From Myxococcota bacterium (GTDB lineage Bacteria > Myxococcota > B64-G9), in contig JAKLGA010000009.1 of the NCBI GenBank assembly GCA_022710975.1, forward strand, positions 245,547-309,546: 64,000 nucleotides of DNA, read 5' to 3'. Positions 17,732-53,868 of this stretch are shown piece by piece. The notes under the pieces are model-generated. The model ran no database searches, was not told the DNA's origin, and saw nothing but the letters and a program-made list of their open reading frames with translations. Position 1 is the stretch's first letter. The number at the start of each line of letters is the position of its first letter. Position numbers and translations under genes: made by a program.

Positions 17732-19911
17732 GGGACACCGACGAGCGCGCGTTGGCCGAGCGCCTGTGCCAGGCGCTGGCCGACGGAGACCGGCCCGGCG
17801 GGCTGGCCCTGGCGCGTCTGCTGGAGGCGCTCCACCTGCCGCCGCACGCCCGACGCGGGGTGACGCGCCTGCTGCGCGGGCTGGTCGGGGAGGGGCGGGT
17901 CGTGGCCGAGGGCCGCGGCCGCTACCGGCTCGCTCGCGCGCGGGCCGAGGTGACGGGCCGGCTTGCGGCGGGCAGCCGCGGCTGGAGCACGATCGAGGCC
18001 GAGACGGACGGGCGCTCGCTCGCGCGCGTGCCTGCCGAGGCGCGCGGGGGCGCGGTGCCGGGCGATCGGGTGCGGGCCGTGCTCGAGGCGGGCTCCCGGG
18101 AGCTGCCCACGGCCCGGGTCGAGGAGATCCTGGAGCGCGGCGGCCGCCCCATCCTGGGCACCTTCTGGCGCCAGGGCCGGGCGGCCTTCGTGCTGCCGGG
18201 CGACGACGAGCTGTGCCCGCCCGTGCGCCTGGCGGCGCTGCCGGCCGGCGCCGCCGCGCCGGCCGACGGCGACCTGGTGGCGGTGAGCCTCGACGATCCG
18301 CGGCCGCTCGCCAAGCCCCACGGCCGGCTGGTCGAGGTGCTGGGCCGGCCCGGCACGCTCACGGCCGAGCTCGGCCGCTTGCACCTGGAGCACGGGCTCG
18401 AGCGCGGGTTCTCCGCGGAGGTGCTGGCCGAGCTGGAGTCGGCGCCGGCCGAGCCCGCGGACGAGGGCAGGGCGGACTGCCGCGCCCAGCCGCTGGTGAC
18501 CATCGACCCCGACACGGCCAAGGACTTCGACGACGCGGTCTGGGTCGAGCGGCAGGGGCGCGGGCATCGCCTGTGGGTGGCCATCGCGGACGTGGCCGCC
18601 TTCGTGCCTCCGGGCTCGGCCGTGGACGTGGAGGCCCTGCGCCGGGGTTGCAGCGTGTACCTGCCCGGCACGGTCTTCCCCATGCTGCCGTCGGCGCTGT
18701 CGGAGCGCCTGTGTAGCCTGGCCCCGGGCGAGACCCGCGCGGCCATGCTGCTCGAGCTGGATCTGGACGAGGCCGGGCGGGTGCAGGCAGCGCGCGCGCG
18801 CCGCGCCCGCATCCGCTCCCGCGCTCGCCTGACCTACGGCCAGGTGCAGGCGGCACTCGACGGCGCGGCTGGCGCTGGCCCGGCCGAGGCGCTCGGCCCG
18901 GAGCTGGAGGTGATGGCGGAGTGCGCCGGGCGCCTGCTCGGGCGCATGGATGCGCGGGGCGCCCTCGACTTCGACCTGCCCGAGTCCGAGGTCCTGCTCG
19001 GCCCGGACGGGCGGCCGCGGGAGGTGCGTCCGGCCCGGCGGCTGTTCGCCCACCGGCTGATCGAGGCGTTCATGGTGGCGGCCAACGAGGCCGTGGCCGT
19101 GGGCCTGCGCGGGCTCGGCGCACCGCTGGTCTACCGCACCCACCTGCCGCCGGACGCGGACAGGCTGGCCCAGTTCACCGAGCTGGCCGAGACCCTGGGC
19201 GCGCCGGCGCGTTTCGGCGAGAAGCCGACCGCGCTCGCGCTCTCGCGCTACCTGGCCGCGCTGCACGGCCGGCCCGGGGCCGAGGTGCTCGAGCACCACC
19301 TGCTGCGCAGCCTGATGCAGGCCCGCTACGGCACGGAGTGCGAGGGCCACTTCGGGCTGGCCAGCGAGTGCTACCTGCACTTCACCTCCCCCATCCGGCG
19401 CTACCCGGACCTGTGCGTGCACCGGCAGCTCGGCGGGCTGCTCGAGCGCGCCGGTCCCGAGGGCCTGGAGCTGCCGCTGCGCGGCCAGGCCGCGGCTGGC
19501 GCCCCTGGGCGGCGAGGGAGCTTCCCGGTCAGCGCGGAGGAGGCGGCCCGCGTGGCCGCGCAGAGCTCCCGGGCCGAGCGGCGGGCAGTGCTGGCCGAGC
19601 GCGAGGCGACCAACCTGTACCACGCCGCCTTCCTCGAGCCGCGCGTGGGCGAGGTGATGGAGGGGGTGGTCGCCTACCCCGCGGAGTTCGGCGCCTTCGT
19701 GCGCCTCCTGCCCAGCGGCATCGAGGGCCTGGTGCACATCGCGCGCATGGACGACGACTACTACGAACACGACCCGGAGCGTCTGCGCCTGCGCGGCCGG
19801 CGCACGGGCCGGGTGATCAAGGTGGGCCAGGCCGTGCGGGTGCGGGTGGAGTCCGTGTCGCTCGCCCGCCGGCAGGTGGAGCTCACCTTCGTCCCGGAGG
19901 CGCGCCCATGA
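17728..19911 (+). CDS. rnr: Ribonuclease R / RNase II-family 3'-5' exoribonuclease with C-terminal S1 domain (GTG start overlapping the TatD stop)
   Basis: RNB-domain motifs (TIDPDTAKDFDDAVWV, HFGLASECYLHFTSPIRRYPDL). C-terminal S1 (GEVMEGVVAYPAEFGAFVRL). Confidence 0.85.
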   Translation: MRDTDERALAERLCQALADGDRPGGLALARLLEALHLPPHARRGVTRLLRGLVGEGRVVAEGRGRYRLARARAEVTGRLAAGSRGWSTIEAETDGRSLARVPAEARGGAVPGDRVRAVLEAGSRELPTARVEEILERGGRPILGTFWRQGRAAFVLPGDDELCPPVRLAALPAGAAAPADGDLVAVSLDDPRPLAKPHGRLVEVLGRPGTLTAELGRLHLEHGLERGFSAEVLAELESAPAEPADEGRADCRAQPLVTIDPDTAKDFDDAVWVERQGRGHRLWVAIADVAAFVPPGSAVDVEALRRGCSVYLPGTVFPMLPSALSERLCSLAPGETRAAMLLELDLDEAGRVQAARARRARIRSRARLTYGQVQAALDGAAGAGPAEALGPELEVMAECAGRLLGRMDARGALDFDLPESEVLLGPDGRPREVRPARRLFAHRLIEAFMVAANEAVAVGLRGLGAPLVYRTHLPPDADRLAQFTELAETLGAPARFGEKPTALALSRYLAALHGRPGAEVLEHHLLRSLMQARYGTECEGHFGLASECYLHFTSPIRRYPDLCVHRQLGGLLERAGPEGLELPLRGQAAAGAPGRRGSFPVSAEEAARVAAQSSRAERRAVLAEREATNLYHAAFLEPRVGEVMEGVVAYPAEFGAFVRLLPSGIEGLVHIARMDDDYYEHDPERLRLRGRRTGRVIKVGQAVRVRVESVSLARRQVELTFVPEARP

Positions 19912-24890: not shown

Positions 24891-26300
24891 CTACTCCCTG
24901 GACTTGGGCATGGAGCCGGTGCGGGACGAGTAGACCGAGGCGCGGGCCGAGGCCAGGGTCTGGCCGGCCTGGCGGGCGAACAGGATGAGCATCTCGAACT
25001 CGCGCTCGGTGATGGTGCCGAGCTTCTCCGAGCGGTCGATGCCCAGCACCCCCAGCACCTTGTCGCGGTAGGTCATGGGCGCCAGCGCGAAGGGGTTCAG
25101 GCCGATCTTCTTGGCCAGCTCGCGGTTGATGCCCTCGAAGCTCAGCGGGTCGGTCACGTTGAAGGCCTGGTCGTCCAGGGCGCAGCGCGCGGTCAGGCCC
25201 TCCTCCCTGCGCAGCGGGATGTTCACCCGCATGGGCGTTCGCGCGCTCTCCGGGACCCGGCTGTGGTAGGCCACCCGCCGCAGCTTGAGCTCGCCGCCCT
25301 CGGCCACGTACATCAGGGCCCGGTCCAGCTCGAGGCCGGTGACCAGCACCTCGCAGATGCGGTCGACCACCTCCTCCAGGTTGCGGTGGTGCTGGAGCAC
25401 CTCGCTGACCTGGTAGAGCATGCGGAACAGGCCGGCCTGGCGCTCGAGCAGCAGGTTCGACTCCCGGAGCTGGCGGGCCTTCTTGTGCACCTGCCGGATC
25501 AGGAAGCCCGAGGCGCTGGCCACCGCGGCGAAGGCGAAGAAGTTCACCAGCATCATGAGGATGATGTAGCTGCCGCGGTGGGCGAAGTTGTCGAGCGCCA
25601 CGAAGTAGGACACGTGGGGCAGGACGCCGGTGACCACCAGCACCGCGATGGCCGAGTAGACGACGCCGGCCAGCGCCGCCATGGTCATGCCGGCCGCCGG
25701 CCCCACCAGGATGCTGCCGCCGATGATGGGCAGGAAGTACAGGAAGGAGAACGGGCTGGTCACGCCGCCGGTGCGCCACACGTAGGCGGAGAACACCAGC
25801 ACGTCGAGCGCGAGCTGGAGCCAGATGAACTTGCGCAGGTCCCAGCGCTGCCTGCGCAGCTCGAGGAAGTACAGGCCGTTGAGCAGGATGGAGATGACCG
25901 CCACCAGGCCGGTGGACAGCAGCGTCTCGCGCGACAGCGGGCTCGAGCCCCGGGTGATGCCCTGCCAGTTGGTCAGGAACATCAGCACGAACACCGACGG
26001 GTTGACCACGAAACGGACGCGGATGATCCAGGCGATCTTCTTGCGCATCTCCTCGCGCGTGTCGCTGAGATCGAAGTCGATCTCCAGCATCTTCTTGGGG
26101 AGCGCCATGGCCATGTCGCGGGTGCCGGCCAGCAGCACCTCGGTCACCGATTGGCCGCGCGGGCCCTCCGCGCTCGGGGGCGGCGGGGCGTAGCCCGGCG
26201 CGGGGGCGTCCGCCGTGGGGGGCGGGGCGTCCTGCGCGGGCGCTGGCGGGCTGGCGTCCACCGGGGGCGCCGGGCGCTCGGGCTGGGCTTCGTCGGACAT
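24891..26300 (-). CDS. Multi-pass membrane protein with C-terminal GAF-like sensor domain and Pro-rich N-terminus
   Basis: Six or more hydrophobic helices, then LEEVVDRICEVLVTGLELDRALMYVAEGGELKL... (GAF-like). Confidence 0.65.
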   Translation of the reverse strand: MSDEAQPERPAPPVDASPPAPAQDAPPPTADAPAPGYAPPPPSAEGPRGQSVTEVLLAGTRDMAMALPKKMLEIDFDLSDTREEMRKKIAWIIRVRFVVNPSVFVLMFLTNWQGITRGSSPLSRETLLSTGLVAVISILLNGLYFLELRRQRWDLRKFIWLQLALDVLVFSAYVWRTGGVTSPFSFLYFLPIIGGSILVGPAAGMTMAALAGVVYSAIAVLVVTGVLPHVSYFVALDNFAHRGSYIILMMLVNFFAFAAVASASGFLIRQVHKKARQLRESNLLLERQAGLFRMLYQVSEVLQHHRNLEEVVDRICEVLVTGLELDRALMYVAEGGELKLRRVAYHSRVPESARTPMRVNIPLRREEGLTARCALDDQAFNVTDPLSFEGINRELAKKIGLNPFALAPMTYRDKVLGVLGIDRSEKLGTITEREFEMLILFARQAGQTLASARASVYSSRTGSMPKSRE

Positions 26301-26391
26301 GGCTGGAAGGGTAGCCAGCCCTTCCCGGCCCTGTCAATCGCGCCCGGAAAAACCTGTCCTCCGGGGCCCGGGCTGGCGTACTGGTGAGAGG

Positions 26392-27021
26392 ATGGGCAGC
26401 GAAGCCCGTATGCGCACCGAGCTGGCGGTCGAACGCGAGGTGCTGGCGCGGTTCCGGAGCGGCGAGGGCCAGGCCTTCACGGAGGTCATGCGGGCCTACG
26501 CCGGGCTGGTGCGCGCCGTGTCCCGCGGGTTCTTCCGCGACGCCTTCCGCCAGGAGGAGGCCATGCAGGAGATCTGGCTGCTGGCCTACCACCAGCGGGA
26601 GCGCCTGGATCCGGAGCGGCTGGACGAGTTCGAGGGCTGGCTGCGGGTGCTGGCGCGCCGCCGGTGCATCGATCTGCTGCGCCGGGAGCGCCGCATCCAG
26701 GCGCGTGAGACCAGCCAGGACCCCGGGCAGCTCGGCGAGCGGGCCGCGGTCCCGGCCGAGCAGCCGGGCCAGCTCGAGCTCGCGGAGGTGCAGGCCGCTC
26801 TGCAGGAGTTCCAGGCCCGCCTGCGCCCGGCCTGGCGGGCGTTCTTCGAGCTGTGCTTCATCCAGGGCAAGGACTGCGCGGAGGCCGCGCGCCAGCTCGC
26901 CCTGGGCCGCATCCGCTGCAAGTACATGAAGCGGGTCCTGGCCGCCAGGGCGCGCCGCAGCCCGCGGCTCCGCCGGGTCCTGGGGCTGGACGTCGGCGCG
27001 GGAGGGGCTCCCCATGTGTAG
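26392..27021 (+). CDS. ECF-type RNA polymerase sigma factor (sigma-70 family, group 4)
   Basis: Internal Met MGSEARM. Regions 2 and 4 recognizable (EVMRAYAGLVRAV, LAYHQRERLDPE, CKYMKRVLAARARRS). Confidence 0.8.
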   Translation: MGSEARMRTELAVEREVLARFRSGEGQAFTEVMRAYAGLVRAVSRGFFRDAFRQEEAMQEIWLLAYHQRERLDPERLDEFEGWLRVLARRRCIDLLRRERRIQARETSQDPGQLGERAAVPAEQPGQLELAEVQAALQEFQARLRPAWRAFFELCFIQGKDCAEAARQLALGRIRCKYMKRVLAARARRSPRLRRVLGLDVGAGGAPHV

Positions 27022-27889
27022 CCGGGCCGAGATCGATCGCTACCTGCTGGACGGACTTCCCCCCGGGCGGGAGGGCCGCCTGCGCGCCCACCTGGGAGTC
27101 TGCGAGCGCTGCCGCGGTCAGTACGATGAGCTGGTGCGATTGCTGCGCGGCCTGCAGGGCGCGCCCCAGGGCCCGACGGCCGAGGAGCAGGCGCGCCTGG
27201 AGCGGCTGGTGCTCGGCCGGGCGGGGCTGGGCGCTCAGCCCGCATCGGCCGGGCGTGGCTCGTGGCGCGACGGCCTGGTGTGGGCCTCGGGGCTGCGCCT
27301 GGCGGGCCTGGCCGCGGCGGGCCTGGTGCTGGTGCTGGCCCTGGTGTGGTGGCTCGCCCCGGCCGGGCCGCCCGAGCTCGAGGTGGGCGCACCCGGGCAG
27401 TCCCTCGAGGGGACCCGCGAGCTGCACCTCGCCCGCGGTGGCCTGCTGAAGCTCCTGCCGGGCACCCGCGCGCGCCTGATCGACGAGGAGCGCCTCGAGC
27501 TCGAGCAGGGCGTGGTCTGGTGCCAGGTCGACCCCGGGCGGGGCGGCTTCTCGGTGCGCACCCCCCTGGCCGAGGTGCGGGTGGTCGGGACCTCCTTCGT
27601 GGTCGAGGAGCGCGCCGGGCGGTCCACCGAGGTCCGGGTGTTCGAGGGGCAGGTCGAGCTGTCCGCCCGGCTGGCCGGAGGCAGCGTGCGGCTCCGGGCC
27701 GGAGAGCGCTCCGCGGTCCTGCCCGGCCGGACGCCGCCGGAGGTCCGACCCTTCGATCCCCGCGCGGAGCCGATCGACTGGGAGCGGCTGCAGCGCCGGG
27801 GCGAGCAGGCGCTGGAGCGCGCGGGACGCGAGGCCGACAAGACGTTCCACCGCGTGGAGAGAGAGCTCCGCGATCGCCTGCCCCGTTGA
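27014..27889 (+). CDS. Anti-sigma factor: zinc-finger HxxxCxxC N-terminus, one TM helix, FecR-like periplasmic domain
   Basis: AHLGVCERC motif. TM helix. FecR-like (VVGTSFVVEERAGRSTEVRVFEGQVEL). ATG overlaps the sigma factor stop. Confidence 0.75.
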   Translation: MCSRAEIDRYLLDGLPPGREGRLRAHLGVCERCRGQYDELVRLLRGLQGAPQGPTAEEQARLERLVLGRAGLGAQPASAGRGSWRDGLVWASGLRLAGLAAAGLVLVLALVWWLAPAGPPELEVGAPGQSLEGTRELHLARGGLLKLLPGTRARLIDEERLELEQGVVWCQVDPGRGGFSVRTPLAEVRVVGTSFVVEERAGRSTEVRVFEGQVELSARLAGGSVRLRAGERSAVLPGRTPPEVRPFDPRAEPIDWERLQRRGEQALERAGREADKTFHRVERELRDRLPR

Positions 27890-27949
27890 CACCCCGACGA
27901 GATACTCCTAGGATCGCGCAACGATTCCCAGCCAGGGAGCAACGACGCG

Positions 27950-29524
<1,575 letters not shown>

Positions 29525-29549
29525 GCCCCGGGCCCCGAGGTGAAGCGCG

Positions 29550-30098
29550 ATGAGCGAAGCCCCCATCGACCCGGCCCTGGCCGCGGAGGTCGAGATCCTG
29601 GCCCTGCAGCTCGAGGGCCTGTCGTACTACCAGGTGCTCCAGGTGGACCCGCGCGCCAGCGCCGGCCAGGTGCGCTCCGCCTACCACCAGCTCTCGCGGC
29701 AGTACCACCCGGATCGCTACTTCCACCTGCCCGAGTGCTCCTTCAAGGCCCACATCTACAGGATCTCCAAGCGCATCACCGAGGCCTACGTGGTGCTGCG
29801 CGAGCCGGGCAGCCGCGCCCAGTACGACCAGCAGCTGGCCGCGTCGAAGGGCGCCAAGCTGCGCTACACCGAGGAGTCGGCCAAGGCCCAGAAGAAGGCC
29901 AAGGAAGAGGTCACCGGCAAGACCGAGAAGGGCCGCAAGAGCTTCCAGCAGGGGCAGGCCGAGGTGAAGAAGGGCAACTTCCCCGCCGCGGAGCGCGCCT
30001 TCAAGATGGCGCTGGTCTTCGAGCCGGACAACGAGCTGTTCAAGAAGGCCCTGGCGGACGCCCAGAGCAAGATCAAGGTGGACTACACCGTCAAGTAG
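29550..30098 (+). CDS. J-domain co-chaperone (HPD motif) with Lys-rich C-terminal region
   Basis: YYQVLQVDPRASAGQVRSAYHQLSRQYHPDRY. 25 bp downstream of the Hsp70 gene. Confidence 0.8.
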   Translation: MSEAPIDPALAAEVEILALQLEGLSYYQVLQVDPRASAGQVRSAYHQLSRQYHPDRYFHLPECSFKAHIYRISKRITEAYVVLREPGSRAQYDQQLAASKGAKLRYTEESAKAQKKAKEEVTGKTEKGRKSFQQGQAEVKKGNFPAAERAFKMALVFEPDNELFKKALADAQSKIKVDYTVK

Positions 30099-30117
30099 CC
30101 CGCCGCGCCCGCCGGAG

Positions 30118-32010
30118 GTGCCCATGCCGGAGCTCCTGCAGTACGCCCTGGTCGTGGACGCGGCGGACGGATCCCACGAGCTGCGCGAGCTGCCCTTCCC
30201 CCAGGTGATCGGGCCGGTCGACTTCGGCTGGGCCATGGCGCGCGAAGGCGACTACGTGTGCATCGGCGCCGGCGTGCTGGCCGGCAGCATCATCCCGGGC
30301 TCGAACCGGCTCGTGTTCACCGGACAGTCGCCTGCCTGGGGCGGCTTCTACGTCTCGACCATGGGCGGGGCGGCGCTGCTGTGGGACGGCACGGGGCTGT
30401 CCTTCCTGGCCATCGGCGGGCGCGCCGCGCGGCCCAGCGCGCTGGTGCTGCGCGGCGTGGAGGGCGAGTTCCCCAGGGTCACCCTGGTGCCCGTGGATCT
30501 CGAGGCGATCTGGGCCGACCCGCGCGGGCCCGGGGGGTTCTACGCCCTGCAGCAGCACGTGTTCGAGCAGCTGTGGGAGGCCGAGGGCACGCCGCGGGTG
30601 CTGGCCGTGGGTCCGGCCGCGCTGCACACCGCCAGCGGCGCGATCGGCTCGTCCAAGACGCGCCAGGGCGCGCTCACCCCGGTCGACTGCTGGGCCGGCC
30701 GCGGCGGGCTGGGCTCGCGCCTGCTGCAGCGCCACAACATCTGCGCGCTGGTGTACGGGGGCGACTTCGAGGACCAGGATCTGGTCGACCGGGCCGAGGC
30801 CAACGGGTACTTCCAGAAGCGCTTCTCCAAGGAGATGAAGCTGGTCGACCTCGAGGCCACCACGAAGTACCGCTACGACCCCAAGTTCCACTCCGGCGGG
30901 ACCTTCGGGGTGAACTACTCCAGGCTGGCCGACCTCATGCTGTCCTTCAACTACCGTTCGGTGGGCTGGCCGAGGGCCGAGCGCCAGGCGCTCTGGGAGC
31001 GGCTGGTCCGCGATCACTACCTCGCGCAGTTCAACGCCGAGACCATCGAGGGCAAGCAGCAGTCCCAGTGCGGCGAGCCCTGCCCGGCGGTGTGCAAGAA
31101 GCTCAAGGACGAGTTCAAGAAGGACTACGAGCCCTACCAGGTGCTCGGCCCGCTGGCGGGGGTGTTCGACCAGCGCGTGGCCGAGGCGCTCAACCACCGG
31201 GCGGACGCCCTCGGCTTCGACGGCATCCAGATCGGCGGCCAGGTGGCCTGGGTGCTCGAGTGCCTGCACGAGGGCCTGGTGAGCGCCGCGGAGCTCGGGC
31301 TGCCCGGGGACGTCCCGCCCCGGCCGGTGTTCGAGCCCCGGGGCTTCGACCCGGTGGCGCACTCCGAGCACAACGGACGGCTGGCGCTGGCCGTGCTCGA
31401 GCTGTGCGCCCGGCCCGGTCACCTGCTCGCGCGCGGCATGCGCGCCGCGGCCCGGGCCCTCGGGCCGGCCGCCCGGGACCGGGCCGTGTACCTGGCCAAC
31501 GGGCCCGAGGGCTGGATGGTGCCCAACCAGTACTGGACGCCCGGCATGTTCGGCCCCCAGTGGCTGATGGGGCGCTACTACACGGACTACGGTTATGAGT
31601 TCCGCCCGCCCGAGGAGCTCGGGCGGCAGTCGGCCGAGCGCATGCTGGTCGAGCTCGGCACGGACAACGCAGGCGTGTGTCGTTTCCACCGCGGCTGGAG
31701 CGAGAAGCTCTGGCCCGACATCGTCCAGGGCCACCTGCAGGTCGAGGTGGACTACCCCGGCCACCACGCCCGGCTCGCCAGGCAGCTCCACCGTCAGGGC
31801 CAGCCGGTGGCCTGGGAGAGCGCGCGCATCGCCGAGCTCATCCACGCGTACCTGGTGAACCTCCGCGAGGATGCGCCCGGGGACGCCCGGCTGGGCGAGT
31901 GGCTCGGCCGTTTCGAGGCCGATCGGGCCGCGGCCGCGCGGGCCTTCTGGGAGGGCATGCGCGCCGGGATCGAGGCCCGCCTGGGGGAGATCGCCGATGA
32001 CGCCCCTTGA
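30118..32010 (+). CDS. Aldehyde:ferredoxin oxidoreductase (AOR)-like protein, divergent
   Basis: N-terminal region resembles the AOR N-domain (LVFTGQSPAWGGFYVSTMGGAALLWDGTGLSFLAIGG). GRGGLG motif and a Cys cluster (CGEPCPAVC). Assignment is tentative. Confidence 0.45.
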   Translation: MPMPELLQYALVVDAADGSHELRELPFPQVIGPVDFGWAMAREGDYVCIGAGVLAGSIIPGSNRLVFTGQSPAWGGFYVSTMGGAALLWDGTGLSFLAIGGRAARPSALVLRGVEGEFPRVTLVPVDLEAIWADPRGPGGFYALQQHVFEQLWEAEGTPRVLAVGPAALHTASGAIGSSKTRQGALTPVDCWAGRGGLGSRLLQRHNICALVYGGDFEDQDLVDRAEANGYFQKRFSKEMKLVDLEATTKYRYDPKFHSGGTFGVNYSRLADLMLSFNYRSVGWPRAERQALWERLVRDHYLAQFNAETIEGKQQSQCGEPCPAVCKKLKDEFKKDYEPYQVLGPLAGVFDQRVAEALNHRADALGFDGIQIGGQVAWVLECLHEGLVSAAELGLPGDVPPRPVFEPRGFDPVAHSEHNGRLALAVLELCARPGHLLARGMRAAARALGPAARDRAVYLANGPEGWMVPNQYWTPGMFGPQWLMGRYYTDYGYEFRPPEELGRQSAERMLVELGTDNAGVCRFHRGWSEKLWPDIVQGHLQVEVDYPGHHARLARQLHRQGQPVAWESARIAELIHAYLVNLREDAPGDARLGEWLGRFEADRAAAARAFWEGMRAGIEARLGEIADDAP

Positions 32011-32758
32011 CCTGATCGTCACGGGCGTGGTGCTGCTGTTCGGCCTGCTCGGGTTCCTGTCCGGGTTCTGGATGCAGATCATGCGCCTGGCGGTCATGCT
32101 GGGCGCCTACCTCCTGGCCCCGGTGATCGGCCAGCCGCTCGGCCTCCCGCTGGCCAGGGCGCTCGGCATCCCGCCCCTGGTGGGGCTCGCGGCCGCCTCC
32201 TTCCTGGCCTTCATCGGGCTCTACCTGGTGCTCGGCACCGTGGGCTGGGCCATCCTGCGCCGGCGCCGCAAGGCCAAGGACGAGGCCTCGGCCAAGCGCC
32301 GCCAGCGCTGGGACGGCCTGGCCGGGGCCGGCCTCGGCCTGCTCAAGGCGGGCTTGCTGTGCTACCTGATCCTGTGCGGCCTGGTGCTGGTGGAGGGGCC
32401 GCTGCGGGACGCGCTGCGCGGCTCGGAGCTGGGCTACGAGCGCTCCGTGGCCGTGGCCTTCGCGCGCCAGCACAACCTCCTGTCCAGCCTCCACCTGCCG
32501 GTGGTCGGGGATCTCGCCGCCCTGTCGCGGCTGAGCCACGACCCGACCTTCAGGGAGAAGGTGGCCAAGGATCCCAAGGTCCAGCGGCTGCTCCAGCACC
32601 CCAAGCTGCAGGGCCTGCTGGGGGACGAGGCCGTCCTGCGCGCCTCCGAGGGAGGCGATCCGGCCGCGCTGCTCGGCAACCCGCGCGTCAACCAGGCCTT
32701 CCAGGATCCCGAGATCCAGAAGCTCCTGTCCGAGATCGACCTCAGCCAGATCGAGTGA
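31997..32758 (+). CDS. CvpA-family membrane protein
   Basis: MTPLDLIVTGVVLLFGLLGFLSGFWMQI... Four hydrophobic helices, CvpA-like. Confidence 0.65.
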   Translation: MTPLDLIVTGVVLLFGLLGFLSGFWMQIMRLAVMLGAYLLAPVIGQPLGLPLARALGIPPLVGLAAASFLAFIGLYLVLGTVGWAILRRRRKAKDEASAKRRQRWDGLAGAGLGLLKAGLLCYLILCGLVLVEGPLRDALRGSELGYERSVAVAFARQHNLLSSLHLPVVGDLAALSRLSHDPTFREKVAKDPKVQRLLQHPKLQGLLGDEAVLRASEGGDPAALLGNPRVNQAFQDPEIQKLLSEIDLSQIE

Positions 32759-32872: not shown

Positions 32873-33640
32873 ATGAAGATCCTGGTCATCGACGACAGCG
32901 TGCTGGCCCTCGAGTTCGCCAAGATGACGCTCGAGTCGATGGGCTACGAGGTCGAGACCAACCCCACCCCCTTCGGCACCCAGAGCATCATCCAGACCCG
33001 GAAGCCCGACGTGGTGCTGATGGACGTGGACATGCCCGCCCTGAAGGGCGACGCCCTGTGCGCGCTCATCAAGAAGAACCCGCGCATGGCGGGCACGCGC
33101 GTCGTGCTCTACTCCTCCATCGAGCCCGTCGAGCTGGCCCGGCTGGCCAAGGAGTGCGGAGCCGACGGCTTCATCCACAAGACCGGCGATCCGGCCGTGC
33201 TGCGCGACAGGCTCGAGCGGCTGCTGGGCACGCAGCCCAGGAGCGAGGACGGCGCGCCGCGCCAGGTGCGCATCAGCCTGGTGGACGACAGCCCCATCAC
33301 CCTCATGTGGGTGCAGCGCGTGCTGGCGGCCGAGAACTACCAGGTCGAGACCTGCCAGGACGCCGAGCTGGCCGAGCAGTTCGTGGAGCGCTCCCGGCCG
33401 GACGCCATCCTGCTGGACGTGAACATGCCCTTCAAGAGCGGGGACGCGATCTGCCGCGCGCTGAAGGCCGACCCGCAGACCCGCGGCATCCCGGTCATCC
33501 TGTACTCGGTGCTGCCGGCCCAGGAGCTCGAGCGGCTGGTCCAGGACAGCGGGGCCGACGGCTACATCGTCAAGAACGACGACCCGAACCACCTGGTGCG
33601 CCAGCTGCGCGCGCTGCTGGACACGCTCCAGGCCCGCTGA
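32873..33640 (+). CDS. Tandem double-receiver (REC-REC) response regulator without output domain
   Basis: Two receiver modules, each with the phospho-acceptor Asp context (VVLMDVDMP and AILLDVNMP) and KILVIDD / ISLVDDS N-terminal acidic pockets. Confidence 0.8.
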   Translation: MKILVIDDSVLALEFAKMTLESMGYEVETNPTPFGTQSIIQTRKPDVVLMDVDMPALKGDALCALIKKNPRMAGTRVVLYSSIEPVELARLAKECGADGFIHKTGDPAVLRDRLERLLGTQPRSEDGAPRQVRISLVDDSPITLMWVQRVLAAENYQVETCQDAELAEQFVERSRPDAILLDVNMPFKSGDAICRALKADPQTRGIPVILYSVLPAQELERLVQDSGADGYIVKNDDPNHLVRQLRALLDTLQAR

Positions 33641-35529: not shown

Positions 35530-37710
35530 ATGATGGCCAGAGATCGGGTGGTCGATGGGTGGTTGCTCGTCGGGGTCCTGGGCTGGCTCGCGGCCGCGGG
35601 AGGGGCGCGCGCCGCGGAGGAAGAGGCTCCGCCCGCGGAGGCGGGCCGGGCAGCGGACGAGGAACAACCCGAGCTCGACGGGCTGCTCCAGGGTGTGCAG
35701 GACTACTCCCAGCTCGATCTCGGCCAGCTCCTGGGCCTGCCCGTGGTCGAGTCGGCCTCGCTCCGGCGCCAGTCCATCCTGGACTCGCCGGTCTCGATCT
35801 CGGTCCTGACCCGCGAGGAGATCGAGTCGAGCGGGGCGACGAACGTGGCCCAGCTCCTGCGGCGCCTGCCCGGGGTGCTGGTGCTGCAGGAGTCCGCCAA
35901 CGCCTACCTGGTCGGGGTGCGGGGGCTCAGCGCGCTCGGCAACAACCGCACCCTGCTGCTGGTCGACGGCAGCCCGGCCATGGACCGCATGACCGGGCTC
36001 CAGCTCTGGCCGGCGCTGGCGGTGCTGCCCGGCGATCTCGAGCGCATCGAGGTGATCCGCGGGCCGGGCGCGACGCTGTACGGCAGCGACGCCCTGAGCG
36101 GGGTGATCAACCTGGTGACCAAGCGGCCGGTCGATCACCCCGGGTTCGAGGCCACGGCCTGGGGTCTGCTCGATCTGATGGCGGACAGGCCCGACGGCAG
36201 CGCGGACGACGTCTGGATGGCCAACGGCGGCGGCGCGCACCTGGCCTACGCCTGGGCGGACGAGGGCCGCACGCTCGGGGTGCGCCTGGCCGGCGGGCTG
36301 GCCCTGGACCCGGAGTGGAGCCCCACGATCGCGACCCAGGAGAACGGTCCCCTGGCCTACGATCTGCGGGCCACCTTCGAGTACCGGCCCGACAAGAACC
36401 TGGAAGTCCTGGCCAGCTTCAGCCACGCCGCGGCGGAGACCAACCGGGTGCAGAACTGGATCCCGGTGCGCAACCCCATGCAGGTGCAGACCCTCAGCCT
36501 GCACCTGGAGAAGCGCGAGCTGGGGGTGGACTGGCTCACGCTCAGGCTGGACGTGGACGGGCACCGCCAGGCCATCGAGTACATCGCGCTGCCGCACCCG
36601 GAGGACTCGCTGTTCCAGCTGCTGCCGCTCGACATGTTCCGCATGCCGTGCGTCACCTGGGACGCGCACGTCCGGGCCCAGCTCGATCTGACCTTCTGGG
36701 ACCGGCGCGAGGTGCTGTCGGTGGGCGGGGAGGTGACCTACTTCGGGGTCGAGGAGTTCTACACCCAGCCGTGGATGGTGTTCGGCGGGGTGCTGGTGAA
36801 CAACGATCTCACCCTGCTGGACGACCGCTCGCTGATCCTGAGTCTGGGCGGCCGCTACGAGGCGGTGACCTCGCGCGAGGCGGACTTCGGCGAGATCCTC
36901 TACCAGCACCTCAGCCCCAAGGCGGCGCTCATCTGGAAACCCACCAGCGAGCACAGCCTGCGCCTGGCGGGCGGCTCGTCCTACCGCACCCCCCAGCCCA
37001 TGGAGACCTTCATCGACTGGTCGGTGCACGCCACCGACCCGAACGATCCGCCCTCCCACGTGCTGATCGGCAACCCGCGCCTGCTGCCCGAGCGGCTGTA
37101 CGGCGGCGAGCTCGGCTACCAGGGGCTGCTCTACGAGGGCCTGCGCCTGGACGCGGTGCTGTTCGGCCAGGCGGTGCAGGATCTGGTCGGCATGGTGCGC
37201 GAGACGCGCGTGCCGCTGTTCATGGAGAACGTCCAGGACCTCTACCAGGTCGGGCTGGAGCTGGCGCTGAGCTACAGCCTGGCGCAGGTCCTGCGCGCCT
37301 ACCTGAACTACACCTTCGTCTACAGCCTGGACGCCGAGAGCCTGGACGCGGTCAAGGACTGGCCCACGCACCTGTGGTCGTTCGGCCTGGAGGCCGCGCT
37401 GCCCGCGGAGGTGCGGCTCGGGCTGGACGTGGGCCTGGTGTTCGACTACCGGCCCCTGGTGGCCTCGGCCTCCTCGCCGACGACGGGCGTGGGCAGGCTC
37501 GACTGGAGCGCCCGGCAGGCCGCCGACGCGGCCCACATCGACCTGCGCCTGAGCAAGCGGCTGTTCGACGACCACGTGGAGGTATTCCTCATGGTGCGCA
37601 ACCTGGTGGGCTTCTTCCGCGAGCCGGCCGGGCTCAAGAGCATCCCGGAGGACTACGCCCTGCCCATCGGCGGCACCGTCCTGGCCGGCCTGCGCCTGGG
37701 CGGCTGGTGA
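35530..37710 (+). CDS. TonB-dependent outer-membrane receptor (copy 1)
   Basis: Plug-domain motifs (DSPVSISVLTREEIE, IEVIRGPGATLYGSDALSGVINLVTK). Beta-barrel-length C-terminus ending in an aromatic residue (…LRLGGW). Confidence 0.85.
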   Translation: MMARDRVVDGWLLVGVLGWLAAAGGARAAEEEAPPAEAGRAADEEQPELDGLLQGVQDYSQLDLGQLLGLPVVESASLRRQSILDSPVSISVLTREEIESSGATNVAQLLRRLPGVLVLQESANAYLVGVRGLSALGNNRTLLLVDGSPAMDRMTGLQLWPALAVLPGDLERIEVIRGPGATLYGSDALSGVINLVTKRPVDHPGFEATAWGLLDLMADRPDGSADDVWMANGGGAHLAYAWADEGRTLGVRLAGGLALDPEWSPTIATQENGPLAYDLRATFEYRPDKNLEVLASFSHAAAETNRVQNWIPVRNPMQVQTLSLHLEKRELGVDWLTLRLDVDGHRQAIEYIALPHPEDSLFQLLPLDMFRMPCVTWDAHVRAQLDLTFWDRREVLSVGGEVTYFGVEEFYTQPWMVFGGVLVNNDLTLLDDRSLILSLGGRYEAVTSREADFGEILYQHLSPKAALIWKPTSEHSLRLAGGSSYRTPQPMETFIDWSVHATDPNDPPSHVLIGNPRLLPERLYGGELGYQGLLYEGLRLDAVLFGQAVQDLVGMVRETRVPLFMENVQDLYQVGLELALSYSLAQVLRAYLNYTFVYSLDAESLDAVKDWPTHLWSFGLEAALPAEVRLGLDVGLVFDYRPLVASASSPTTGVGRLDWSARQAADAAHIDLRLSKRLFDDHVEVFLMVRNLVGFFREPAGLKSIPEDYALPIGGTVLAGLRLGGW

Positions 37711-37727
37711 ACGTGGAGGGACGAGAC

Positions 37728-38195
37728 ATGCGCGACTGCCTGGTGCGCCTTTCTGGTGTGGTGCTGGCGGGCGTCCTGGCCTGCGGCGCGGTGGCCTGCG
37801 GCGCGGACCTGCCCCCGGAGCGGCTGCTGGGGGTGGTGCAGGGCAACATCGTCTACCGCGGCCAGGGGCTGGAGGGGCAGACGGAGCCGCGGCTCTCCAT
37901 CGTCGTGCTGCTCGAGCCCTGGTCTCTCGACGACTGGGAGTCCTGGACCTTCCCCAACGCCTTCCGCATCTACGAGGCTGCCCCGCTCGCGCCCGATGGC
38001 CTGGACTTCGAGCTGACCCACCTGGAGCCCGGCCACTACGAGGTGCTGGCCTTCCTGGGCGTCGAGGGCCGTCCCAGCACCGAGCCGGTGGCCGTGGGCG
38101 CCTACCCGAACCTGCTCCAGATGGGCGATCGCCCGGTGGAGGTGCTCGAGGCTCAGGTCACCGAGGGCATCGACTTCGAGCTGTACGACTTCTAG
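37728..38195 (+). CDS. Companion lipoprotein of the TonB-dependent receptor (copy 1), carboxypeptidase-regulatory-like fold suspected
   Basis: Lipobox VLACGAVACG. Paralog of the 40631 ORF (shared YPNLLQMGDRPVEV...GIDFEL). Confidence 0.65.
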   Translation: MRDCLVRLSGVVLAGVLACGAVACGADLPPERLLGVVQGNIVYRGQGLEGQTEPRLSIVVLLEPWSLDDWESWTFPNAFRIYEAAPLAPDGLDFELTHLEPGHYEVLAFLGVEGRPSTEPVAVGAYPNLLQMGDRPVEVLEAQVTEGIDFELYDF

Positions 38196-38409
38196 CCCGC
38201 CGGGGTGGGCCCGTCCGGGATCGCACTGGCACCCCTGGACGGGCATGGCCCTCGAGAGCACACCCCGAGTTTCATGCCCCAAATGGGGAATTGATCCTCC
38301 CGATCCGCACAGGGTACTTTCGCCTGGTCACCCGGAAAGATGGGGTTCCGGCGTTGGCCCGGCCGCGGAGCCCGCGAGGCCCCGGACCGTGGCAAATGCG
38401 AGGGCGGGC

Positions 38410-40614
38410 ATGCGGTCGCACGCTTTCCGTGGGTGTGTGTGGTCGACAGGGCTGAAGTCATGTGCATTCCTCGCGTTCCTCCTGACAGGGCCACTTGCCG
38501 CTGCCAGGGAGGGCGAGCCAGGCGAGGATGGCGAGGTAGACGAAGAGCAGGGCGAGTCGGACGGCCAGGCCGGGGTCCTCGACGGCCTGCTCCAGGGCGT
38601 CAGCGACTACTCCGAGCTGGATCTCGGCCAGCTCCTCGAGCTCCCGCTGGTCGAGTCGGCGTCCCTGCGGCGGCAGTCCATCCTCGACTCACCGGTGACC
38701 GTGTCCGTGCTGACCCGGGATGAGATCGAGTCGAGCGGCGCGGTCAACGTGGCCCAGCTCCTGGCCCGGCTCCCGGGCGCGCTCGTGCTCCAGGAGGGCG
38801 CGAACACCTACTGGGTGGGGCTGCGCGGCCTGTCGGCCCTGGGCACGAACCGCACCATGCTGCACGTCGACGGCAGCCCGTTCCACGACCGCCTGACCGG
38901 GTTGCAGCTGTGGCCCATCCTGCCCCTGCTGCCCGCGGATCTGGAGCGCATCGAGGTCATCCGCGGCCCGGGCTCGATGCTCTACGGCAGCGACGCGCTG
39001 AGCGGGGTGATCAACCTGGTCAGCCGGCGGCCGCTCGATCACGCCGGGTTCGAGGCCTCGGGCTGGGGCCTGTTCAACCTGCTCGGCAGCCAGCCAGACG
39101 GGTCCTCCCCGCGCGTCTGGATGGAGAACGGGGGCGGGGCGAGCCTGGCCTACGGCTGGGTGGATCCCTCGGGGCAGCTGGGCCTGCGCGTCTCGGGAGG
39201 CTTCAACCACGAGCCGGAGTGGTCCAACCAGGCCGGTGACTTCGCCAACGGGCCGTTCGCCTACCAGGTCCGGGCCAGCCTCCAGCTCCTGCCCGATCCG
39301 TACTCGGAGCTGCGCCTGAACTTCGCCCACGCGGCGGCGGAGACGATGCGGGTGTTCGTGTTCTTCCCGGTGCGCAACCCCGTGTCCGCGCAGAGCCTGG
39401 ATCTGCACTACAGCCGCAGGCACCTGGGCGCCGACTGGCTCGGGCTGCGGCTGGACGCCGACGCGCACCGCATGACGGTCGAGTTCGTGTCGCTGCCGCA
39501 GGAGGATGATTCGCTGTTCGTGCTCATGCCCTTCGACCTGTTCAGCATCCCCAGCGAGAGCTACGACGCCCACCTCAGGCTCCAGCTCGACGCCAGCCTC
39601 TGGGAGGACCGTGAGCTCCTCAGCCTGGCCGGGGAGGTGACCTACTTCGGCGTGGCCGACTACACCTCCCGGCCCTGGATGCTGTTCGGCGGGGTGCTGC
39701 TGAACAACGACCTCGTCCTGCTGGACGATCGCTCGTTGATCATCAGCCTCGGCGGCCGCTTCGACTACGTGCGCTCCCACGAGGGATCCTTCGGCGACAT
39801 ACGCTACCGCCACCTGAGCCCCAAGGCGGCGCTCATCTGGAAGCCGGCGCCGGATCACAGCCTGCGCCTGTCGGGCGGCTCGGCCTTCCGCACCCCGCAG
39901 CCGGCCGAGACCTCGATCGACTTCCAGGTGCGGCCGGGCGGCCCGGACGGGCCGGCAGCCCACGTGCTGGTCGGCAACCCCCGTTTGCAGCCCGAGCGGC
40001 TGTACGGGCTGGAGCTCGGCTACCAGGGCAAGCTGTGGCAGGGGCTGCGTCTGGAGGCGGTGGTGTTCGGGCAGCGCGTCGACGATCTGGTCGGGCTGAC
40101 CCGGGAGACGCGCGCGCCGATCTTCAAGGAGAACGTGCAGAGCGTGCACCAGGCTGGGCTGGAGCTGTCGCTGCGCTACCTGGACCCGGACCGGGTGCGC
40201 GCCTCCCTGAGCTACACCTTCATCTACAGCCTGGACGCGGACACGGGCGCGGTGGTCAAGGACTGGCCCATGCACCTCTGGTCCCTGGGTGCGGACGTCG
40301 AGCTCGGCCTGGGCTTCAGCCTGGGCGTGCAGGCCGGCCTGCAGTTCGACTACCGCCCGCTGGTGGCCGTGCCCATCACCCCGGATCTCGGCACCATGCG
40401 CATCGAGTGGCAGCCCCGCCAGGCCGCGGATCAGGCCCGCGTGGACCTGCGGCTCGGCAAGCGGCTCTTCGACGGCACGGTGGAGATCTTCCTGATGGCC
40501 CGCAACCTGGCCGGCTTCTTCCGCGAAGCCCAGGGGCTGCAGGGCATCCCCATGGATTACGCACAGCCGATCGGCGGCAGCCTGCTCCTGGGCGTGCGCG
40601 CCGGCGGATTCTAG
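38410..40614 (+). CDS. TonB-dependent outer-membrane receptor (copy 2, paralog)
   Basis: Internal Met MRSHAFRG... Collinear with copy 1 through plug and barrel (roughly 50% identity by eye). Confidence 0.85.
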   Translation: MRSHAFRGCVWSTGLKSCAFLAFLLTGPLAAAREGEPGEDGEVDEEQGESDGQAGVLDGLLQGVSDYSELDLGQLLELPLVESASLRRQSILDSPVTVSVLTRDEIESSGAVNVAQLLARLPGALVLQEGANTYWVGLRGLSALGTNRTMLHVDGSPFHDRLTGLQLWPILPLLPADLERIEVIRGPGSMLYGSDALSGVINLVSRRPLDHAGFEASGWGLFNLLGSQPDGSSPRVWMENGGGASLAYGWVDPSGQLGLRVSGGFNHEPEWSNQAGDFANGPFAYQVRASLQLLPDPYSELRLNFAHAAAETMRVFVFFPVRNPVSAQSLDLHYSRRHLGADWLGLRLDADAHRMTVEFVSLPQEDDSLFVLMPFDLFSIPSESYDAHLRLQLDASLWEDRELLSLAGEVTYFGVADYTSRPWMLFGGVLLNNDLVLLDDRSLIISLGGRFDYVRSHEGSFGDIRYRHLSPKAALIWKPAPDHSLRLSGGSAFRTPQPAETSIDFQVRPGGPDGPAAHVLVGNPRLQPERLYGLELGYQGKLWQGLRLEAVVFGQRVDDLVGLTRETRAPIFKENVQSVHQAGLELSLRYLDPDRVRASLSYTFIYSLDADTGAVVKDWPMHLWSLGADVELGLGFSLGVQAGLQFDYRPLVAVPITPDLGTMRIEWQPRQAADQARVDLRLGKRLFDGTVEIFLMARNLAGFFREAQGLQGIPMDYAQPIGGSLLLGVRAGGF

Positions 40615-40630
40615 GCGGGGAGGGAGCGAC

Positions 40631-41098
40631 ATGCGGCGACACCTGCTGACCTCGATGGCGCTGGCGGCGAGCCTGGTGGCGGGCTGCGGGGTGGATCTGC
40701 CGGACGGGGGCTTCGGGCAGAGCGTGCGGGGCGAGCTGACCTACCGCGGGCGAGGGCTCGAGGGGCTGTCGCGGCCCACGCTCGGCGTCCTGGTGGTGGT
40801 CGAGCCCTGGGCGTCCACGGATTGGTCCACCTGGACCTGGCCCAACGCGTTCCGCATCTACGATCCTGTCGCCTTCGAAGTGCAGCGCTTCGAGTACGAG
40901 GTGACGGGCCTCGAGCCGGGCAGCTACGAGGTCATGGCCGTGCTGGGCGAGGCCGACCGGCCTGCCACCGACCCGATCGCCATGGGCGCCTACCCCAACC
41001 TGCTCCAGATGGGCGATCGCCCGGTCGAGGTGCCCGAGGTCGGGGCCGCGGAGGGGATCGACTTCGAGCTGTTCGAGGTCGAGCTGGGCGGGATCTGA
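40631..41098 (+). CDS. Companion lipoprotein of the TonB-dependent receptor (copy 2)
   Basis: Lipobox LVAGCG. Paralog of the 37728 ORF. Confidence 0.65.
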   Translation: MRRHLLTSMALAASLVAGCGVDLPDGGFGQSVRGELTYRGRGLEGLSRPTLGVLVVVEPWASTDWSTWTWPNAFRIYDPVAFEVQRFEYEVTGLEPGSYEVMAVLGEADRPATDPIAMGAYPNLLQMGDRPVEVPEVGAAEGIDFELFEVELGGI

Positions 41099-52801: not shown

Positions 52802-53868
52802 TCACGGCACGGGGACGATTCTGACCTCGAGCCGGGTGAGGTAGGCGCCCTGGGTCCAGGTGAAGCCGCCAGCCTTCAGGGAGCTCAAGCTCAGCGGGTC
52901 GGCCTGCACCCCCCCGATGAACTCGTAGTCGGTCACGTCGCTGTCGTAGGCCATGAACATCCAGCTATCCGTGGCGTAGATGTCCTCCTGGAAGGACTCG
53001 TTCCACACGGGGTTGTAGTTGTCCGACTTCTCCGTGGTGCTGAAGATTGGCTGCCCGGTGTCCGGGTCCGAGTTGCGGTAGACGCGGACGATCGGATCGG
53101 GCATGCCGCCCGGGAAGTCCCACGCGTCGCCGGACTGGTCGTAGTCGGAGACCGTGGCCGAGACGATGGTGAAGGTGTACCGCCGACCGTAGGCCGGCAC
53201 GCAGTCCCCGCCGATGCACAGCGAGCTCGAGTCGCACACAGCGTGGCTCGCGCAGGTGCAGCGCCCCGTGGCGTCGCAGCCCTGGCCCGTGGGGCAGGTG
53301 CCGCACGACTGCCCGCAGGTGGGATCCGGGCCGCACTCCCGGCCGGTGCAGGTCGGGGTGCAGCCGCCCACGCACAGGCCGTTCCCGTCGCAGGTCTCCC
53401 CGGTCGGGCAGCTGCCGCACGCGGCCTGGCCGCCGCACCCGTCGTCCCAGGAGCCGCACTCGTGGCCGAGCTGGGGGCAGGTGGCGGGCGTGCACGAGCC
53501 GCACCAGCCGTCGTTGTCGAGCACGTCGACGATGTTGTTCCCGCAGGCGGAGCTCTCGATGCACCCGGACAGGATGTTCTCGGGGATGACATAGTCGATG
53601 AGGTCCAGGGTGCAGCTTCCGTCCTCGAAGGTGTGGTCATCCCCGTACGTGAGGCAGGTGCAGTCGCCGTCGTAGACCAAGGGGTACTTGCCCTGGGTCA
53701 CACAGTCGCACTGACAGCAGTCGCGGCCGAGGCAGTAGGTGCCTACTGCCTGGTACACCTGCATCGCCACCCTGGTGCAGTCGTCCTCCGCGTTGCCTCC
53801 CTCGCCGCCGCAGCCGGCGAGCAGGGCAACGAGCATCAGCGCAATCGTCCACTTGCCTTTCCTCATGG
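52802..53868 (-). CDS. Cysteine-rich lipoprotein with CGxCPTGxxCDxxGxC repeats and a C-terminal C2-like (Ca2+/lipid-binding) beta-sandwich
   Basis: SD AGGAGG. Lipobox LLAGCG. CGSCPTGETCDGNGLC / CGTCPTGQGCDATGRC repeats. C-terminal ...RVYRNSDPDTGQPIFSTTEKSDNYNPVWNESF resembles a C2 domain. Confidence 0.65.

Follow-up and report, generated by a model that had tools for sequence, protein, structure and literature searches.

A lid-less Hsp70, a J-protein and a CvpA-family protein as a recurring gene trio in Myxococcota, apparently overlaid by later oxidoreductase and sigma factor insertions

A stretch of six plus-strand genes, including those for an Hsp70 chaperone and its J-protein, was analysed within 64,000 nt of chromosomal DNA (approximately 72% G+C) from a Myxococcota bacterium (contig JAKLGA010000009.1; this whole stretch is hereafter termed the window). 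In order, the genes encode an extracytoplasmic function (ECF)-type sigma-70 family factor (26392-27021; 209 aa), an anti-sigma factor (27014-27889), an Hsp70 (27950-29524; 524 aa), a J-protein (29550-30098; 182 aa), a GAPOR-like oxidoreductase (30124-32010; 628 aa) and a CvpA-family protein (31997-32758; 253 aa), with complex I subunits, YchF, TatD and RmuC encoded around them. All six genes display a coding-type G+C content at third codon positions (GC3; 0.91-0.98), and the long antisense open reading frames (ORFs) in this region are GC artefacts. The sigma and anti-sigma reading frames share 8 bp (ATGTGTAG) and those of the oxidoreductase and cvpA share 14 bp (ATGACGCCCCTTGA), while 60 bp separate the end of the anti-sigma gene from the start of hsp70 and 25 bp separate hsp70 from the J gene. 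The gap between the J and oxidoreductase genes is 19 bp or 25 bp, depending on whether GTG 30118 (yielding 630 aa) or ATG 30124 serves as the start; the latter, which is preceded by the ribosome-binding site GGAGGTG and agrees with public gene calls (628 aa), is the more likely of the two. An initial annotation of this DNA had placed the six genes at these positions with these overlaps, an arrangement confirmed by GC3, domain content and spacing. It had also regarded them as an unusual functional unit under the control of the sigma/anti-sigma module. Comparison with approximately 170 related loci (labelled here with L-numbers) revealed that the gene arrangement is retained in related genomes, but not as a single six-gene block.

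The Hsp70 possesses a nucleotide-binding domain, a linker, the SBD-beta (beta part of the substrate-binding domain) as well as the start of lid helix A. It covers positions 1-509 of the 599 in the Pfam HSP70 profile and aligns with residues 4-515 of E. coli DnaK, the LLDVTPL linker included, and its C-terminus is located approximately 10 residues beyond the last aligned DnaK residue (515), inside helix A. Lid helices B-E and the C-terminal tail, which are found in canonical DnaK, are absent, thereby bearing out the earlier description of a 524-aa Hsp70 without a lid. The NCBIfam models for canonical DnaK both scored below their cut-offs (PRK00290, 642.3 against 648; TIGR02350, 623.3 against 822.6), as did the HscA model (516.6 against 708.6). 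Among the 32 orthologues that are complete, 29 have a similarly short C-terminus (524-562 aa), and the protein is, as judged by profile and alignment, a specialised DnaK paralogue that naturally lacks a lid. Engineered deletions of the DnaK lid are known to accelerate both substrate binding and release, and the window Hsp70 is for this reason probably a fast-cycling binder. Additionally, within the sub-clade of loci that bear the oxidoreductase gene, the last residues of the Hsp70 resemble one another, with the pattern (E/D)L(V/A)-COOH (AELV, AELA, LDLV or LELA; within 29470-29524 in the window), and the Hsp70 tails outside this sub-clade are unrelated to it; this end is possibly a motif to which the TPR-like J-protein tail docks.

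In the J-protein, a J domain bearing the HPD motif is joined by a charged linker to a TPR-like C-terminal domain of three helices. The DnaJ domain (PF00226) was matched with 53.7 bits, residues H53-P54-D55 were invariant across 23 J-family sequences, and the family alignment contains the conserved motif AER.FKMAL.YEP.NELFK. An AlphaFold2 (AF2) model with a predicted local distance difference test score (pLDDT) of 86 displayed the J domain together with a confidently modelled TPR-like domain, the three helices of which (residues 126-174) correspond to approximately 1.5 TPR repeats, and Foldseek matched the model to J-domain structures with a probability of 1.0. At the level of sequence profiles, a weak single TPR_1 match was obtained (19.6 bits against a cut-off of 27.8), the HscB model TIGR00714 scored 21.7 against a cut-off of 46.75, and HscB structures superposed on the J-protein model at a root mean square deviation of 12.6-14.7 Å. 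Assignment of the pair to an HscA/HscB-type system was rejected in view of the model scores, which fall under their cut-offs, and the poor structural fit to HscB. As the J family is small (53 database matches), this protein represents a specific marker for the locus.

The CvpA-family protein combines a four-helix Colicin_V domain (PF02674; 48.8 bits), which was matched in 43 of 43 family members, with an STI1/HOP-DP-like C-terminal domain. In its AF2 model (pLDDT 86), four long helices are accompanied by a bundle of shorter ones, and a structure search of the whole model against the PDB returned no significant match. The STI1-HOP_DP profile (PF17830) reached a whole-protein score of 32.5 against 29.1 as a repeat-type match, no stretch of which passes by itself, and was matched in 31 of the 43 family members at E <= 0.01. 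Lysine and arginine residues cluster in the helix 3-4 loop (10 in the window protein; family mean 5.4), and the transmembrane (TM) domain has weak homology to its counterpart in the Mycobacterium tuberculosis protein MarP (Rv3671c), which has a CvpA-type four-helix anchor, a periplasmic C-terminal domain and a role in stress resistance. Based on the basic 3-4 loop and this homology, the STI1-like tail is predicted to be extracytoplasmic (periplasmic), which would leave only the basic loop open to cytoplasmic partners. The window protein thus resembles MarP in its domain order, with a Colicin_V-type TM domain at the N-terminus and, after it, a C-terminal domain that is predicted here to be extracytoplasmic, but differs from it in that this domain is an STI1/HOP-DP-like helical repeat rather than a serine protease. 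Likewise, its repeated DP/NP-rich helical motif is a profile-level match (PF17830) to the DP domains of eukaryotic STI1/HOP, which are Hsp70/Hsp90 co-chaperones, and it is encoded beside an Hsp70; unlike those domains, the tail forms part of a bacterial membrane protein, has a predicted periplasmic location and is accompanied by no TPR-EEVD system. CvpA is, to our knowledge, a widespread protein of unknown function.

Using the J-protein as a probe, 80 metagenome loci were obtained, 68 of which could be assessed for an upstream Hsp70 gene and 70 for a downstream CvpA gene. An Hsp70 gene was located directly 5' of the J gene in 54 of the 68, in agreement with the earlier suggestion that the J-protein encoded 25 bp after hsp70 is its dedicated partner. 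A CvpA-family ORF was located 3' of the J gene in 63 of the 70 (55 of these being strong matches by profile hidden Markov model), down to a J identity of 37%. When grouped by J identity, these loci fall into 46 clusters at 90% and 21 at 70%, and six J clusters at either threshold include a locus without CvpA. Gaps between the J gene and cvpA amounted to approximately 4-90 bp in the loci seen, the STI1-like tail was conserved among these loci, and the genes flanking the trio varied between lineages. The order Hsp70-J-CvpA without an intervening oxidoreductase was observed in an Archangium sp. metagenome-assembled genome (MAG), a further MAG from Myxococcota and a soil contig from JGI, while in the cultured Pyxidicoccus sp. 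3LG the J gene adjoins CvpA and the contig ends upstream, with no Hsp70 seen there. Conversely, a J gene was present upstream in four of four contexts examined for STI1-tailed CvpA proteins. Because the adjacency recovered with the J probe, the short Hsp70 C-terminus and the STI1-like tail are all conserved, the conserved unit at this locus is the trio Hsp70-J-CvpA; the proposal that the gene set forms one functional unit with the AOR-like protein is consequently not supported, as it is CvpA, and not the oxidoreductase, that is conserved alongside Hsp70/J. Within the literature library searched, CvpA, Hsp70 and DnaJ did not occur together in any paper, and the trio of lid-less Hsp70, J-protein and CvpA-STI1 appears to be undescribed, each single gene family being known. 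A role as an anti-phage defence system was considered and rejected, as none of the six proteins had a PADLOC match. Among the related loci, L087 (5937-10646) encodes a 681-aa Hsp70 with an acidic low-complexity tail and a J-protein, followed by a 672-aa redoxin/AhpC-TSA/multihaem-cytochrome protein and not by CvpA.

It may be argued that the adjacency of the three genes is inherited synteny, with the Hsp70/J pair acting on soluble clients and CvpA being an unrelated membrane protein. This would be compatible with the predicted location of the STI1-like tail across the membrane from the chaperones, and with the seven of 70 assessable J loci in which other genes follow the J gene (e.g. L087). 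However, the adjacency holds to 37% J identity and approximately 27% CvpA identity despite changing flanks, the genes are closely spaced, and the J gene was present in each of the STI1-tailed CvpA contexts; we therefore regard mere synteny as unlikely.

The gene between the J gene and cvpA had tentatively been described as AOR-like, a call that was borne out by profile searches and that can be stated more exactly as GAPOR-like. The product matched AFOR_N (PF02730; 56.4 bits, cut-off 29.8) and AFOR_C (PF01314; 49.8 bits, cut-off 27), and the NCBIfam model GAPOR_Arch was matched with 327.8 bits (E=1.2e-97) by residues 47-611 across profile positions 54-637 of 654, a score that lies far under the equivalog cut-off of 1300 and hence does not represent an equivalog match. 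The Cx3Cx3C spacing that had rendered the earlier call uncertain is real and no defect: C318, C322 and C326, together with the distal C521, the four cysteines expected to ligate the [4Fe-4S] cluster, are invariant in an alignment of 14 sequences at 47-80% identity to the window protein, and the spacing corresponds to a one-residue insertion relative to the canonical AOR motif CxxCxxxC. DxxGx(C/D) pterin-binding motifs have been defined in the AOR of Pyrococcus furiosus. Two motifs of this type were identified in the alignment (D363-A-L-G-F-D368 and D516-N-A-G-V-C521), in which D363, G366, D368, G519 and C521 are invariant and D516 is at least 90% conserved. The window protein is, on these matches, an AOR-family, GAPOR-like single-subunit enzyme and a putative tungsten/molybdenum (W/Mo)-pterin [4Fe-4S] aldehyde:ferredoxin oxidoreductase, and is likely to be functional since it retains the four invariant cysteines and both DxxGx(D/C) motifs. 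The GAPOR of P. furiosus is a class I single-subunit tungsten oxidoreductase of WOR clade 23 (PMC13328260). The window enzyme resembles it in full-length model similarity, in consisting of one large subunit without a small-subunit gene beside it, and in its four cysteines and two pterin motifs, and differs from it in the sub-cut-off model score (328 bits against 1300), in its membership of a bacterial/archaeal family and in being embedded in a chaperone cassette.

The oxidoreductase family is large (2788 homologues, approximately 569 genome loci, proteins of approximately 625 aa) and its hosts, mostly uncultured, include Bacteroidales, Planctomycetota, Desulfobacterota, Zixibacteria, Methanosarcinales and others; the present results place this bacterial family beside the archaeal GAPOR. 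The context of 80 genome loci recovered with the oxidoreductase as a probe was assessed by tblastn for Hsp70, J and CvpA within the search range. Hsp70 and J were present upstream in only five (one of which, L008, is the same contig as L003), four of these having CvpA downstream and the fifth being on a contig that ends early, whereas none of the three was detected in the remaining 75. The oxidoreductase gene stands alone in L005 (72% identity), in L007 (70% identity) and in all relatives at <= 51% identity. Viewed from the J-protein, the oxidoreductase gene directly follows the J gene in seven of the 80 metagenome loci, all within a sub-clade with a J identity of at least 54%. The loss of the gene could be followed in two syntenic loci of approximately 86% DNA identity, L094, which carries it, and L093, from which it is gone: L093 (10534-10605) retains the first 23 oxidoreductase codons fused to the start of cvpA (MLKTLLQRALLIRVDDGTRELRT*), as compared with L094 (4723-6595; MPKALLTRALLVHADDGAPELRT). 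This remnant is, from the alignment of the two loci, the scar of a clean deletion of approximately 1.8 kb, and it indicates that the trio persists without the oxidoreductase. The oxidoreductase thus looks like a facultative, sub-clade-specific later insertion between the J gene and cvpA, and the six-gene unit was not upheld by this synteny check. The flanks of the inserted genes were also searched for repeats and for ends of mobile elements, with only chance-level GC-rich matches.

These data also bear on the possibility that the Hsp70/J pair constitutes a maturation system for the AOR-family enzyme, mediating Fe-S or W/Mo-pterin insertion as HscA/HscB do for IscU. Such a role would be consistent with the apparent translational coupling of the oxidoreductase within the cassette (19-25 bp after the J gene and overlapping cvpA), with the HscB-like size of the J-protein, and with a second, unrelated AOR-family gene: L088 (4130-6004; identical in L097, 3687-5558) carries, directly upstream of a trio that lacks the GAPOR-like gene, an AOR with the canonical CxxCxxxC motif, 25% identical to the window enzyme, along with an 82-aa ORF. 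Against this stand the presence of the trio without any AOR gene in most lineages, the 75 of 80 oxidoreductase loci without a nearby Hsp70 or J gene, the clean deletion in L093 with retention of the trio, and the HscA/HscB scores far under their cut-offs, coupled with an HscB superposition at 13-15 Å. A maturation role is therefore considered very improbable.

The chaperone genes appear to possess a promoter of their own. The sequence TTGACA-17-TAGGAT (27886-27914, plus strand) was the only sigma70-type promoter match between 26000 and 35600 (9.6 kb), where 0.1 would be expected, and it is located in the 60-bp gap between the anti-sigma gene and hsp70, with the anti-sigma stop codon TGA inside the -35 hexamer. 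The GTTGACA upstream of hsp70 was invariant in ten of ten relatives, including the seven in which the sigma pair is missing, and a TAnnnT-like -10 was present in nine of the ten (TAAAAA in L098). A similar element, TTGACAC-N17-TAGAGT/TAGACT, was observed in the more distant loci L122 and L155. A riboswitch or leader RNA (e.g. of the molybdenum or tungsten cofactor type) was sought between 24000 and 36000 without an Rfam match. Given that the -35 is invariant regardless of the sigma pair, the ECF factor is probably not the main regulator of the chaperone genes.

The sigma factor was matched by the ECF profile TIGR02937 (52.3 bits against a cut-off of 42.9, residues 28-171) and by Sigma70_r2 (50.9 bits), which identifies it as an ECF-type factor made up of sigma-70 regions 2 and 4 only. 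The anti-sigma factor has one TM helix and a FecR domain (38.2 bits) that is expected to be periplasmic; zf-HC2 scored slightly under its cut-off (20.9 bits), and an HxxxCxxC zinc-finger motif (AHLGVCERC) was read in its N-terminus by inspection. The pair was found only in the window, L089, L001 and L170/171, the latter three of which have the same six-gene order as the window, and is absent from L003, L088, L090, L091, L093, L096, L098 and all more distant trio loci. In L090, L091 and L096 a divergent GAF-sensor gene, which is also present upstream of the sigma gene in the window, directly faces hsp70. The sigma pair therefore looks like a recent, lineage-specific insert at the pre-existing hsp70 promoter. 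A candidate ECF-type promoter, which is a weak call, precedes the sigma gene (TGTCC-N17-GCGTA; 26355-26380, plus strand); conservation of this block was seen across the window, L001 and L089, yet its single occurrence in the window, compared to 1.8 expected in shuffled sequences, is not significant alone. No further copy of this ECF-type motif was found elsewhere in the window, including the region before hsp70.

In the initial annotation the chaperones were proposed to lie under an envelope-stress sigma/anti-sigma module, and the corresponding explanation is a six-gene operon autoregulated by the ECF factor, in which an envelope signal sensed through the FecR anti-sigma factor turns on the chaperones, the oxidoreductase and CvpA. 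The six co-directional genes with gaps of at most 60 bp and two overlaps, the lack of a terminator-like site between the anti-sigma gene and hsp70, the identical order in L001, L089 and L170/171, and the conserved block before the sigma gene would all agree with such an operon. Nevertheless, most relatives keep the other genes without the sigma pair, which is confined to the closest relatives, a conserved sigma70-type promoter directly precedes hsp70 whether or not the pair is present, and the window holds a single copy of the candidate ECF motif, which does not precede hsp70. The autoregulated operon is consequently viewed as quite improbable, and the proposed placement of the chaperones under the sigma factor is not supported. 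A cell-surface-signalling link to TonB receptors encoded further downstream was also rejected: these two receptors, located 2.8-5.5 kb downstream, have only Plug and barrel domains, without a match to the N-terminal signalling (STN) domain that the transducer of a FecI/FecR/TonB system would carry, and are absent from L001. They form part of a tandem duplication (35530-41098, plus strand), the unit of which is a TonB-dependent receptor gene followed by that of a 155-aa protein (the receptors being 62% and the small proteins 52% identical); this two-gene unit is lineage-specific, as it does not occur in L001, where the oxidoreductase is 80% identical to the window enzyme.

From the observed gene content, domain families, conservation pattern, promoter-like element and deletion scar, the locus is best read as three layers rather than as one ECF-controlled unit, namely a Myxococcota-wide Hsp70-J-CvpA trio with its own promoter, an oxidoreductase confined to a sub-clade and a sigma pair confined to the closest relatives; we assign this reading a probability of approximately 0.6. 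The most likely function of the trio, suggested by analogy with known systems, would be joint action of Hsp70/J and CvpA at the inner membrane. The J-protein would recruit and activate the lid-less Hsp70, which, like DnaK with an engineered lid deletion, would bind and release its clients quickly, and the pair may operate on the cytoplasmic side of the inner membrane, where CvpA would be a client or partner (compare HscC with DjlB/DjlC, below), the CvpA tail presumably facing the periplasm. The oxidoreductase would be a co-translated metabolic passenger that converts an aldehyde to the acid with formation of reduced ferredoxin, glyceraldehyde-3-phosphate being the obvious, though unproven, candidate substrate, while the ECF pair would at most add read-through transcription.

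A number of observations weigh against the three-layer reading or the function attached to it. The STI1/HOP-DP assignment rests on a repeat-type Pfam match without a significant single stretch, and the STI1-like tail, if periplasmic as predicted, cannot contact the cytoplasmic Hsp70. As a consequence of that predicted location, the proposed contact between Hsp70/J and CvpA has no candidate surface other than the basic cytoplasmic loop. Similarly, the conserved element, a predicted promoter, was not seen in Myxococcaceae-type loci. Since no terminator-like site was found between the anti-sigma and hsp70 genes, transcripts from the sigma promoter may extend into hsp70, with possible modulation of the chaperone operon by the ECF factor. 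Finally, the occurrence of two AOR-family forms beside the trio could, at low probability, mean that there is a real functional link to this enzyme family. An extension of the three-layer reading, in which the trio forms a membrane-spanning chaperone device that couples a fast-cycling cytoplasmic Hsp70/J pair through CvpA to a periplasmic STI1-type domain handling unfolded or hydrophobic clients, is speculative and, in our estimation, unlikely. If true, such a device would represent the first mechanistic role for CvpA and, in its logic, a bacterial counterpart to Hsp70/J machines with small four-helix translocase subunits.

Bacterial Hsp70s are usually given as three types, DnaK, HscA and HscC (PMC8215388), and the lid-less DnaK paralogue with its own small J-protein, nearly always followed by CvpA-STI1, is a fourth form that recurs throughout Myxococcota. 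The known analogue that fits best is E. coli HscC, a specialised Hsp70 whose private J-proteins DjlB/DjlC are anchored in the membrane and which has a proposed inner-membrane role on membrane proteins (Mayer 2021 review, PMC8215388): in both cases a non-housekeeping Hsp70 gene adjoins its own J gene and the locus contains no nucleotide-exchange factor. In contrast to HscC, in which helix B is shortened, the window Hsp70 is DnaK-like (PRK00290, 642 bits) and has lost the whole lid, and unlike DjlB/DjlC its J-protein has a TPR-like tail and no hydrophobic anchor, the membrane link being provided by the separate CvpA gene. The Hsp70/J pair resembles the Fe-S assembly chaperones HscA/HscB in being a dedicated pair with a small J-protein (approximately 170-180 aa) that has a helical C-terminal domain, and in having, in the window, an adjoining gene for an Fe-S enzyme; however, HscA has a lid, the window locus lacks the IscU/IscS context and the module can do without the adjoining Fe-S enzyme.

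Among myxobacteria, the non-canonical Hsp70s MXAN_2747 (WP_011552814.1), MXAN_3016 (WP_011553072.1) and StkA of Myxococcus xanthus are, like the window protein, DnaK paralogues with a reduced C-terminus, MXAN_2747 having been described with a 'much shorter' SBD-alpha (Pan et al. 2021, PMC8265645). These three proteins are neither essential nor heat-induced (PMC8265645; PMC4319316), and deletions of non-canonical Hsp70 genes, including MXAN_2747, lower sporulation and H2O2 resistance (PMC8265645). In contrast to the window locus, no J-protein/CvpA neighbourhood is described for them in PMC8265645 or PMC4319316. The orthologue of the window hsp70 is probably among these non-canonical M. xanthus genes. 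The stk locus was rejected as a counterpart, as StkA is an Hsp70 of approximately 540 aa but has SCP2-like StkB and PhaE-like StkC as neighbours (Moak et al. 2015, PMC4319316). A preprint lists the M. xanthus J-domain proteins (JDPs) 'MXAN_2747' and MXAN_3015 as binders of MxDnaK1 (bioRxiv 10.1101/2023.06.19.545549); as MXAN_2747 is called an Hsp70 elsewhere, the former may be a locus-tag slip, and the locus number of MXAN_3015 adjoins that of the Hsp70 MXAN_3016, both points bearing on the choice of the M. xanthus orthologue. The recurrent partnership of Hsp70/J and CvpA provides a testable hypothesis on CvpA function in cultured myxobacteria. Furthermore, the locus illustrates the layered build-up of apparent operons, with an oxidoreductase gene gained and then lost leaving a datable scar, and the sigma/anti-sigma pair, inserted exactly at a pre-existing promoter, as a second example of such layering.

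Beyond the six genes, the divergent membrane sensor-like gene (24891-26300, minus strand; Pfam 6TM_PilS and GAF) encodes a protein in which neither a kinase domain nor a recognisable output domain was found, and is also present upstream in L001, L089, L090, L091 and L096. A response regulator gene with two receiver domains (32873-33640, plus strand; Response_reg matched twice) starts 114 bp past cvpA and is probably a separate unit; it is present downstream in L001, L089 and L170/171, and not in L003 or L088. Its product has no output domain, and residues 132-192 gave a weak PADLOC match to SduA/DUF4263 (E=7e-9). Elsewhere in the window, no ORF between 17731 and 22281 passed the GC3 filter; the ORFs at 17766-18716 (plus strand) and 17922-18812 (minus strand) have GC-rich second codon positions (0.83-0.84), which suggests low-complexity sequence or an atypical gene. 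Additionally, a 394-aa ORF at 52802-53986 (minus strand) matched the Pfam C2 domain (E=6e-7), a domain that is unusual for a bacterium.

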